Assembly: GCF_053078305.1 (NCBI RefSeq)
Contig: NZ_CP166879.1
Length of the DNA: 64,000 bases
Direction: 5' to 3' (one strand)
Positions 14,227 through 15,523 of this stretch are shown piece after piece (position 1 is the first letter of the stretch; the number at the start of each line of letters is the position of its first letter). A model generated the notes under the pieces. That model made no database searches, had not been told where the DNA came from, and saw nothing but the letters and a program-made list of their open reading frames with translations. Both the position numbers and the translations under genes were made by a program.

Positions 14227-14347
14227 ACTCACAGGATGATATCAATAACCTTGCAGGGAGGCTATTTTATTTCCTCTTTCAGCGAAAAATCTCCGAGAAC
14301 CCTCGCCCAATGCGGGCGGGGAGCAGTCGCAATCAAGTGAGCCATAA

Positions 14348-14518
14348 ATGAACAAAGACAAATCCTTGACACAACAAGTGGAAGAAATACTTAGCAAGCA
14401 AAAAGTTAGCGAGCAAGGAAAAATGATTCAATCATTAAAGAACATGGGCTTGATCAACAAGCCTGTTTTTACTTTGGCTTATGGACCAGATATTACAACC
14501 TGCCAAATGCACCAATAA
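14348..14518 (+). CDS. Small hypothetical protein downstream of cI (56 aa)
   Basis: ATG 14348 to TAA 14516-14518, followed directly by a strong terminator; below ORF-track size cutoff. Confidence 0.3.
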   Translation: MNKDKSLTQQVEEILSKQKVSEQGKMIQSLKNMGLINKPVFTLAYGPDITTCQMHQ

Positions 14519-14550
14519 CAAAACCCGGCCTTGGTGCCGGGTTTTGTTTG
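14518..14550. terminator. Bidirectional intrinsic terminator between the cI operon and convergent hicAB
   Basis: 11-bp stem acaaaacccgg/ccgggttttgt with 8-nt loop, flanked by A- and T-runs. Confidence 0.7.
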
Positions 14551-14632
14551 CCTCCTGCTCGCCCCACCATTTACCAGTGCGCCGTAAATTCCCCATTCTT
14601 CGGCGGTGAGGATGTCAAAGACGAAGGGAACA

Positions 14633-14977
14633 TTAAGCCCCTGAGTGATGGTTGACTTCTTTTTCCAGCGCCTTATTAACAAAGGCGTTCAGTGATAAAT
14701 CTTCTTCCATCGCCATTTCAGCGACCCGACGATGCAGTTCTGGATCAAGTCTGACGTTAAACACACCTTTAAACGGGGTATCAGGCTCCTTTCCATCCTC
14801 CACACAAGACTGTAAATACAGCTCAACCGATGTCTTAAACTCCTGTTCCAGTTCAGCTAATGTAGAAGCCTCATAAGTTACCAGGTCTCGAATAAACGCC
14901 AGTTTTCCGTACAGGATATTATTTTCAAAATCTGGTTCTACTGTACCTAAATATCCTTTATATTTTAGATGCTTCAT
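14633..14977 (-). CDS. hicB: HicB family antitoxin
   Basis: 114 aa; C-terminal FKGVFNVRLDPELHRRVAEMAMEEDLSLNAFVNKAL typical of HicB. Confidence 0.8.
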   Translation of the reverse strand: MKHLKYKGYLGTVEPDFENNILYGKLAFIRDLVTYEASTLAELEQEFKTSVELYLQSCVEDGKEPDTPFKGVFNVRLDPELHRRVAEMAMEEDLSLNAFVNKALEKEVNHHSGA

Positions 14978-15222
14978 AATACCCCAGCCTCTTTCAGATT
15001 CTGTTTAATCGCTTTCAGCGTTCCACCTTTAATATAACTTTCTGGATGTGGGCGATGCATTAATATGGTGTGGTTGATTTCAGCATTGAAAAACCGCACT
15101 CTTGAGCCCTGCATTTCCTTTTTGACATATCCCAGAGAGGAAAACAAAACGACCAGCTCATCCCATTCAAACGTTTTTTTACTGTTTAAAAACTTTTCCA
15201 GTAGCTTATCTGCTTTCCCCAT
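14974..15222 (-). CDS. hicA: HicA family toxin (mRNA interferase)
   Basis: 82 aa from ATG 15222 (ORF-track start 15228 is GTG); overlaps hicB start by 4 nt; YcfA/HicA-like HRPHP...GTLKAI motif. Confidence 0.7.
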   Translation of the reverse strand: MGKADKLLEKFLNSKKTFEWDELVVLFSSLGYVKKEMQGSRVRFFNAEINHTILMHRPHPESYIKGGTLKAIKQNLKEAGVL

Positions 15223-15523
15223 ACCCACATAATCTCATCTTCGCTACATTGCAACTAATTATAGTTACAGGCAGTGTTTTTGTCAAAAGCCACCAAGCCC
15301 GCTGGGTTCTCTTTGACTGTTCGCTGCTTTTCCTGGTGTTATCCGGGGGCTTTTCCCTCACGCCAAATCTCACACAGAGTAACCGGCCTCAGCGTCGGTT
15401 TTTCTTTGCGCATCCTCCATAACTCACCACCTGCATTATCCTCGCTTATATTTTTTACATAAATAAATTAATCTAAAAATCAATCACATAGATTAAAATT
15501 AAATCAAATTATTAGCCTTACTA

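Follow-up and report, generated by a model that had tools for sequence, protein, structure and literature searches.

A plasmid-type hicAB toxin-antitoxin cassette in the variable slot between cI and pL of an Stx1 prophage

We examined a stretch of 64,000 nucleotides from contig NZ_CP166879.1 (RefSeq assembly GCF_053078305.1), hereafter the window, which carries a Shiga toxin 1 (Stx1) prophage, and focused on a pair of genes, hicA and hicB, that lies between the repressor gene cI and the leftward promoter pL. We found that this pair very probably constitutes a complete and self-contained type II HicAB toxin-antitoxin (TA) cassette, seated in a variable slot of an Eru1-type Stx1 prophage and acting by a mechanism that can be proposed from its family. 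The best reading of the evidence is that of a functional, autoregulated and horizontally mobile TA cassette, the benefit of which to the lysogen is hypothetical. The module itself is already known, as RefSeq names identical proteins HicA (WP_000513533.1) and HicB (WP_000681611.1), a near-identical plasmid copy has been characterized, and a hicAB pair in the slot that rexAB occupies in lambda has been on record since 2007. The direct significance is therefore small, the annotation being correct but ordinary.

Both proteins were recognized by the hidden Markov model search that the initial annotation had proposed as a check of its hicAB call (Table 1), with the HicA_toxin match spanning the full Pfam model (positions 1-58 of 58), and structure prediction, the second check proposed there, agreed with it. 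The AlphaFold2 (AF2) model of HicA, built with 95 homologues, has a mean predicted local distance difference test score (pLDDT) of 95.7 and displays, after a first helix, an alpha-beta-beta-beta-alpha core that resembles a double-stranded RNA-binding domain (dsRBD). Its best matches in the Protein Data Bank (PDB), searched with Foldseek, are the solved HicA structures 1WHZ and 6G26_E (probability 1.00, root-mean-square deviation 2.4-2.7 over 62-63 columns, target-normalized template modeling score 0.61-0.71). The AF2 model of HicB (pLDDT 86) comprises four beta-strands plus a helix, with a helix-helix region after them, and is best matched by Burkholderia pseudomallei HicB 6G1N (probability 1.00) and TTHA0281 2DSY (0.98); its predicted layout combines an N-terminal HicA-binding (partial RNase-H-like) domain with a C-terminal ribbon-helix-helix (RHH). 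When PDB sequences were searched with the single HicA sequence nothing was found at E<=1, and a profile of 95 sequences was required before HicA structures were reached (E about 4e-3); the single HicB sequence yielded marginal RHH matches only.

The two genes lie on the same strand, antisense to cI, with the toxin first and an overlap of 4 nt (ATGA), and they are served by one promoter on the 5' side and one terminator on the 3' side. The initial annotation had described the pair as convergent, which is correct relative to cI and to a neighboring 56-aa open reading frame (ORF) but not for hicA and hicB themselves, which are co-directional. It had also located hicA but begun it at GTG 15228, whereas the start that is kept in plasmid and prophage copies, and that RefSeq uses, is the ATG at 15222, which gives a protein of 82 aa. 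Because the domain matches, the predicted folds, the toxin-first order and the 96% identity to a validated pair all agree, the pair is, judging from its sequence, a genuine HicAB type II TA module of the RHH-type HicB class and of the "overlapping" hicA^O^B subfamily.

Table 1. Features of the immunity region of the window, in order of position.
Feature	Position	Strand	Evidence or remark
cro-like helix-turn-helix (HTH) repressor, 79 aa	13162-13401	-	phrog_35 transcriptional repressor E=2e-17; RefSeq homologue is an HTH protein
OR region	13402-13506	.	pRM-like 13468-13496 (+) and pR-like 13455-13428 (-); promoter scan 10/12 each
cI repressor, 239 aa, HTH and S24 peptidase (S24/LexA-type)	13507-14226	+	phrog_4 E=4e-54; LexA/UmuD C-terminal matches
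56-aa ORF, no assigned function	14348-14518	+	phrog_28875 E=1e-30
Bidirectional intrinsic terminator (predicted)	14517-14548	.	perfect 13-nt arms, 6-nt loop; inverted-repeat search and folding
hicB antitoxin, 114 aa	14633-14977	-	Pfam HicB PF05534 E=1.1e-19 (residues 54-104, RHH); phrog_9151 "HicB-like antitoxin" E=5e-50
hicA toxin, 82 aa	14974-15222	-	Pfam HicA_toxin PF07927 i-E=1.6e-11; phrog_8887 "toxin" E=1e-34
Candidate HicB operator, 20-bp near-perfect palindrome TGTAACTATAATTAGTTGCA	15269-15250	-	covers the -10 and the expected transcription start
hicAB promoter TTGACA-17-TATAAT	15286-15258	-	sigma-70 consensus scan 12/12
Right slot border	15317-15408	+	3' remnant of the second gene of a Panacea-TA pair, and Timm-like terminator 15381-15408
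OL/pL immunity-specific block	15409-15553	+	pL -35 15524-15529 and -10 TATATT 15548-15553; scan 10/12

Upon comparing the cassette with plasmid sequences, we observed that the homology spans 14617-15288 (672 bp), between a point 16 nt beyond the stop codon of hicB and the -35 hexamer, and because of these limits the mobile unit consists of promoter, operator, hicA and hicB. The cassette matches 792 plasmid records in PLSDB, 780 of which are predicted to be conjugative; two plasmid copies were examined in detail, one from an IncX4 and one from an IncI2 plasmid. Relative to IncX4 hicAB the DNA identity is ~91% and the identity of each protein 96%, the counterparts being WP_000520549.1 (HicA, differing at 3 of 82 residues) and WP_000681613.1 (HicB, differing at about 5 of 115), which are carried by the IncX4 plasmid p14EC007a. 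The HicA of p14EC007a is toxic in E. coli K-12 and is fully neutralized by its HicB; the name hicA^O^B was given to this pair because its ORFs overlap and the internal terminator found in the IncI2 type is missing (PMC11878559). The alternative assignment of the window pair to the IncI2 p45-type hicA^T^B, which has an internal terminator, was ruled out, as the genes overlap and the copy fits the hicA^O^B type. Among the codon changes that separate the window from plasmid copies (9-11% DNA divergence), the ratio of synonymous to non-synonymous changes is 10:3 and 15:1 in hicA, and 19:2 and 29:4 in hicB. Since synonymous changes are in such large excess, both genes are, by this sequence measure, under purifying selection.

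Next to the coding sequences, the control region is also conserved. When the window was aligned with the IncX4 and IncI2 copies and with two further copies from prophages, no variation was observed in the -35, the -10 or the palindrome except at one position in the right arm of the palindrome, which is G in the window and A in the prophage locus L003, where it renders the palindrome perfect; the sequence on either side diverges among the copies. A conserved palindrome amid diverged flanks has the look expected of an RHH-antitoxin operator, and we infer that HicB binds it. The mechanism that we propose, based on the HicAB family and on the plasmid pair with 96% identity, begins with the consensus sigma-70 promoter, which would drive a bicistronic hicA-hicB mRNA ending at the bidirectional terminator. 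HicA, with its dsRBD-like fold, would arrest growth, most likely by ribosome-independent cleavage of mRNA, and the N-terminal domain of HicB would bind and mask it. A HicB dimer would in addition bind the 20-bp palindrome over the -10 through its C-terminal ribbon-helix-helix and so repress the operon. Because hicAB has its own promoter and is antisense to cI, its expression should be independent of pRM, of cI and of prophage induction.

In the characterized HicA RNases the catalytic histidine directly follows a Gly-Ser motif (H23 in E. coli, H24 in B. pseudomallei, H28 in Yersinia pestis), an arrangement that is not universal in PF07927. Examination of residues 39-59 of the window HicA revealed that the Gly-Ser motif is kept and that the canonical catalytic histidine is absent, with Arg41 aligning with B. 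pseudomallei H24 and Y. pestis H28 in the profile alignment. Arginine occupies this position in 79 of the 95 members of the subfamily; His59 is invariant among them, and 94 of 95 have His56, located in a two-residue insertion where beta-3 ends. Arg41 is kept in the plasmid HicA of 96% identity, which is toxic all the same (PMC11878559), and for that reason the subfamily must use other residues or have a different mode of action; this toxicity suggests a relocated or different active site. Membership in the HicA family holds despite the missing canonical histidine, and the exchange of arginine for histidine in a demonstrably toxic HicA subfamily poses a small biochemical question.

We then considered how widely the cassette is distributed. 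A 757-bp cassette query matches 441 of 5426 complete E. coli genomes, nearly always on plasmids, and by location the complete E. coli genomes hold the cassette at 465 plasmid and 11 chromosomal places. The exact HicA is present on at least 1000 public contigs. The exact cI allele of the window is listed in 2842 blocks of an assembly collection, and hicAB adjoins it in all ten places sampled; the impression that the cassette is rare in prophage slots, which arose because among complete E. coli genomes only 8 appeared to carry it there, was overturned by this wider look-up. Four of the ten sampled cI-hicAB loci are prophage remnants riddled with insertion sequences (IS), namely L012, L016, L018 and L019 (from CP026836.1, CP119446.1, JARKNR010000001.1 and CP027027.1, respectively). 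These remnants have lost replication or recombination genes and have kept cro, cI and an intact hicAB, and three of the four also kept the 56-aa ORF.

The most likely role, put forward tentatively, would be that of a competition-type cassette that retains itself and is mobile between plasmids and prophages. Several points weigh against our reading of the cassette as functional and mobile. With the nearest plasmid version, the competitive advantage was only weak and amounted to 3:1 after 80 generations (PMC11878559), which weakens the case for self-retention, and hicA is truncated in one of the ten sampled loci (L017). For the window copy itself, toxicity, operator binding by HicB and expression by the lysogen are all predictions, and with Arg41 at the canonical histidine site the RNase chemistry of this HicA subfamily is presumptive.

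The close similarity to plasmid copies raises the further possibility of two-way cross-talk, in which the HicB of the prophage may neutralize the HicA of IncX4 or IncI2 plasmids, and vice versa, so that lysogens would escape post-segregational killing by the plasmids (anti-addiction), or in which the cassette would stabilize the prophage. The few residues that separate HicA and HicB from the IncX4 proteins are compatible with cross-neutralization, as are the promoter and operator, which are the same in plasmid and prophage copies save for the one palindrome-arm position that varies among prophages. Encounters are plausible given the 441 matching E. coli genomes, in almost all of which the match lies on plasmids, and the joint persistence of cI and hicAB in the four IS-degraded remnants would fit a stabilizing effect. 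However, the plasmid module is only weakly addictive (PMC11878559), for pJIE143 a role in maintenance has been discarded (PMC11594946), and retention in the remnants is equally explicable by selection for cI-mediated immunity, or by chance. We regard cross-talk or stabilization of the prophage as possible but doubtful, and self-retention or plasmid-prophage cross-immunity as explanations of tentative to doubtful standing.

The position of the cassette within the prophage may hint at another set of functions. The initial annotation had placed hicAB between cI and pL, and this position was confirmed, with the cI stop at 14226 and with OL/pL assigned to 15409-15553 because the block there co-varies with the type of the cI N-terminal domain and of cro. 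The same annotation regarded the location as equivalent to that of rexAB, which is true of the position and not of the expression, as the pair is not co-transcribed with cI but lies on the opposite strand, has its own promoter and is separated from cI by a strong terminator. The slot extends from ~14241, just past cI, to ~15316. Beyond it, the second gene of a Panacea pair has left its 3' stump at 15317-15382, with the homology to the prophage loci L003 and L004 beginning at 15317, inside their 126-aa gene, and the hairpin and T-run of the Timm-like terminator, positioned as lambda Timm is, are kept in 6 of 6 loci.

Upon examining related prophages, we found that the cargo of this slot varies. 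In Oslovirus Stx2a phages (Lyz12581Vzw, P13374 and the LC6454xx series) it holds a type II methyltransferase and a BsuBI/PstI-type endonuclease (PADLOC E=1.8e-248 and 2.4e-166), and in Lyz12581Vzw (L004, slot 2616-6066) also a SocA/Panacea-type TA pair. The slot of L002 (3674-5184), the stx1 prophage of strain 2018-166, encodes a small membrane protein and an SDH-family Clp-fold protease in addition to the 56-aa ORF and hicAB, and that of L003 (4730-6722) a membrane protein, hicAB and the Panacea pair; a 53-aa membrane protein is among the cargo of the slot.

With such neighbors, hicAB could be a lysogen-expressed abortive-infection or superinfection-exclusion system, in which an infecting phage would free HicA, mRNA would be degraded and the infection would abort; host transcription shut-off, together with decay of HicB, may be one such trigger. 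The sister-phage slots hold bona fide defense cargo in their restriction-modification genes, the slot also hosts the SocA/Panacea TA pair, and in lambda the corresponding place is taken by rexAB. A distant hicAB lies in the same slot of the unrelated phages mEp234 and HK106, which looks like two independent acquisitions, and a defense role of HicA was suggested by Gerdes from genomic contexts (PMC10865869). On the other hand, no PADLOC-DB v2 model was matched by HicA, HicB or the 56-aa ORF (E<=0.1), and according to a 2024 review no HicAB has been demonstrated to protect against phages (PMC11594946). The HicAB2 of Pseudomonas putida prophage P1, a potent TA system, neither protected nor affected prophage stability (PMC12894663), deletion of IncI2 hicAB left resistance to lytic coliphages unchanged (PMC11878559), and no phage was found to be targeted by the HicAB-like pair of Adephagia (as reported in PMC11594946). 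Additionally, the cassette is ~40 times commoner on conjugative plasmids than on chromosomes in the complete E. coli genomes. The putative defense or superinfection-exclusion role is an argument from position, and abortive infection is a possible additional role of the cassette that we consider unlikely.

The borders of the slot carry traces of earlier exchanges. In L003, a short direct repeat, CTGTTCGCT, is present at both ends of a segment that the window lacks, and since the junctions are marked by remnants of lost cassettes and by short direct repeats, the slot is, on sequence grounds, a cassette hotspot with turnover by gain and loss of cassettes at short repeats. The 56-aa ORF fits into this pattern. 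In L002 it adjoins the gene for the SDH-family Clp-fold protease, of which the window keeps the last 13 nt before the 56-aa ORF, and it is missing beside hicAB in the plasmid copies and in L003. It is probably the remnant of a cassette of protease and small ORF, and would travel with the protease cassette and not with hicAB; a role as a third TA component was ruled out on the same distribution. The exact 56-aa protein is present on at least 1000 contigs. Searches of Pfam and NCBIfam gave just a sub-threshold similarity to the ArgR N-terminal domain (E=0.008 and 0.0028), on which no assignment was made, and tblastn against phage genomes returned no match.

The initial annotation had also described this ORF as ending in a strong bidirectional terminator, and we recovered the same structure, with the stop codon overlapping the perfect 13-nt-arm hairpin. 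The hairpin has A and T runs on both sides, with folding energies of -23.2 (+) and -24.5 (-) kcal/mol and z-scores of about -3.2 and -3.1, respectively, and it is predicted to serve both the cI/56-aa and the hicAB transcripts. A terminator consensus scan missed it because the T-run sits within the stem. Furthermore, a 23-nt imperfect inverted repeat (78% complementary, 14280-14302 and 15304-15326, 1001 nt apart) flanks the 56-aa ORF and hicAB, and may be due to chance or be a recombination boundary sequence. A scan of 12500-17500 against Rfam revealed no RNA family within the hicAB and 56-aa region itself.

A hotspot of this kind would also accommodate hicAB as an inert passenger, carried in a permissive site without a current function for phage or host. 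The turnover of the slot at short repeats, as seen in the Panacea-TA stump and in the direct repeat at the deletion ends of L003, would agree with this, and so would the likeness of the 56-aa ORF to a leftover of the protease cassette and the truncated hicA of one sampled locus. Against it stand the two intact genes, the predominance of synonymous changes among copies that are 9-11% apart in DNA, the perfect-consensus promoter with its conserved palindrome, and the occurrence of the exact HicA on so many contigs. An inert passenger is the least probable of the readings, and we think it distinctly improbable.

A bolder proposal would join several of these ideas, with an abortive-infection HicAB that shields Stx1 lysogens from heteroimmune phages, possibly cross-neutralizes the HicA of IncX4 and IncI2 plasmids, and uses a relocated His56/His59 site. 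We judge this combination to be decidedly unlikely; if true, no HicAB before it would have had a defense phenotype demonstrated, and it would link Stx lysogeny to plasmid fate. Irrespective of its role, a 672-bp self-promoted cassette that circulates among IncX4 and IncI2 resistance plasmids and Stx prophages offers a simple system for questions of defense or cross-immunity, and lysogen-expressed functions of Shiga toxin-producing E. coli may reasonably be sought in the slot of Eru1-type and Oslovirus-like Stx phages. We came across no paper that reports hicAB in Eru-type Stx phages, and the Eru papers do not analyze this side of cI.

The prophage is identified by stx1A (6696-7643, minus strand), which encodes subunit A of Stx1 (MKIIIFRVL...KEFTLDFS), and its replication module is of the Eru1 type, with a DEAD-box helicase and a DUF7146 primase. 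At 29354-31239 (plus strand) an integrase at the prophage end is followed by a wrbA-like ORF, the same arrangement as in L002, and by analogy with that prophage wrbA is probably the integration site; the host genes tor, gfc/etk, app and hya follow past the wrbA-like ORF.

The immunity region itself is mosaic. The cro-like gene is divergent from cI, and the C-terminal S24 half of cI (13815-14226) is 94-97% identical between two immunity types, whereas the N-terminal DNA-binding half, OR and cro (13155-13814) are swapped jointly with the OL block, as the contrast with L001, L002 and L007 demonstrates. In the six-way prophage alignment, the block 15409-15547 tracks the type of the cI N-terminal domain and cro, so that the window resembles L003 and L004 and differs from L001, L002 and L007 (P13374), which are of the other immunity type; from the pL -10 onward all sequences are identical. 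A k-mer search for operator motifs shared by OR and OL performed no better than on shuffled sequence. We also observe that the pRM-like -10 (TAAAAT, 13491-13496) is only ~10 nt 5' of the cI ATG, and because of this spacing the maintenance transcript of cI would, like that of lambda, have almost no leader; the GGAGG Shine-Dalgarno sequence of cI would be useful only to transcripts begun further upstream.

Downstream of pL, the ~500 nt from 15559 to 16067 contain no convincing ORF and show 96-98% conservation among Stx phages that differ in immunity type. Within them, a hairpin at 15576-15590, GCCCTTACACAGGGC, has the stem of lambda boxB (expected 0.02 times per window), and ~43 nt beyond it lies a boxA at 15633-15645, TGCTCTTTAACAA, which agrees exactly, at 13 of 13 positions, with the E. 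coli rrn type. A boxB-like element before boxA is the reverse of the order in lambda nut sites, and further downstream we saw no evident N-like gene; for 15560-15900 the fold z-score reaches just -1.95. The product of the first gene past this long pL leader (16068-16619, plus strand) is a 183-aa protein that carries a signal peptide at its N-terminus, belongs to phrog_19473 (no function assigned) and has a weak PADLOC match to Csx23 (E=1.6e-4); in sister phages a Rha-family regulator is found there. Finally, the Rfam scan matched sRNA-Xcc1 (RF02221) at 16757-16845 on the plus strand (65.9 bits against a gathering score of 53 bits, E=8.6e-11), between the gene for this secreted protein and an antirepressor gene of the pL operon.

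When compared with known systems, the cassette is closest to the IncX4 hicA^O^B of pJIE143 and p14EC007a, with which it shares the ATGA overlap, the lack of an internal terminator, the TTGACA-17-TATAAT promoter and the 20-bp palindrome. The locations differ, as the plasmid site adjoins taxA/taxC whereas the window copy sits in the immunity region of a chromosomal Stx1 prophage, and the prophage copies, unlike those of IncX4, have in common an extra 3' tail of ~50 bp (14580-14632) and a different terminator. The phages mEp234, HK106 and mEp506, which have lambda immunity, resemble the window in carrying hicA followed by hicB between cI and Timm/oL/pL, as recorded in the GenBank entries EF120460 and EF120461, deposited in 2007 as "immunity region". 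Their HicA is of the same long subtype (82-84 aa), with an HxPHP motif and no histidine after Gly-Ser, but the identity is just 35% for HicA and 42% for HicB. Moreover, their pair lies on the cI strand, is followed by a 141-aa ORF and is readable from pRM as rexAB is, whereas the window pair is antisense and self-promoted, and they are siphoviruses whereas the window prophage is an Oslovirus-like Stx phage.

Lambda rexAB, in turn, resembles the window hicAB as dispensable, lysogen-carried cargo between cI and Timm/OL/pL, but has no sequence or fold kinship with it. It acts by membrane depolarization and has a proven exclusion phenotype, and because rexAB is co-transcribed with cI whereas hicAB is antisense with a promoter of its own, the analogy is positional only. 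Among structurally characterized systems (B. pseudomallei 6G26/6G1N, Y. pestis HicA3B3 4P78 and Thermus thermophilus 1WHZ/2DSY), the HicA core has the dsRBD-like fold that the window model displays, and the HicBs combine an N-terminal beta-sheet and helix domain with a C-terminal DNA-binding domain, as the window model also does; the window HicA is similar to the solved HicAs at the profile level only and has an extra N-terminal helix (residues 3-13). The hic locus of Haemophilus influenzae adjoins the hif pilus cluster, unlike the pair in the window, but the window HicB is 62% identical to the H. influenzae HicB (Q9LA69) over 95% of its length, which places the pair in the founding HicAB lineage.

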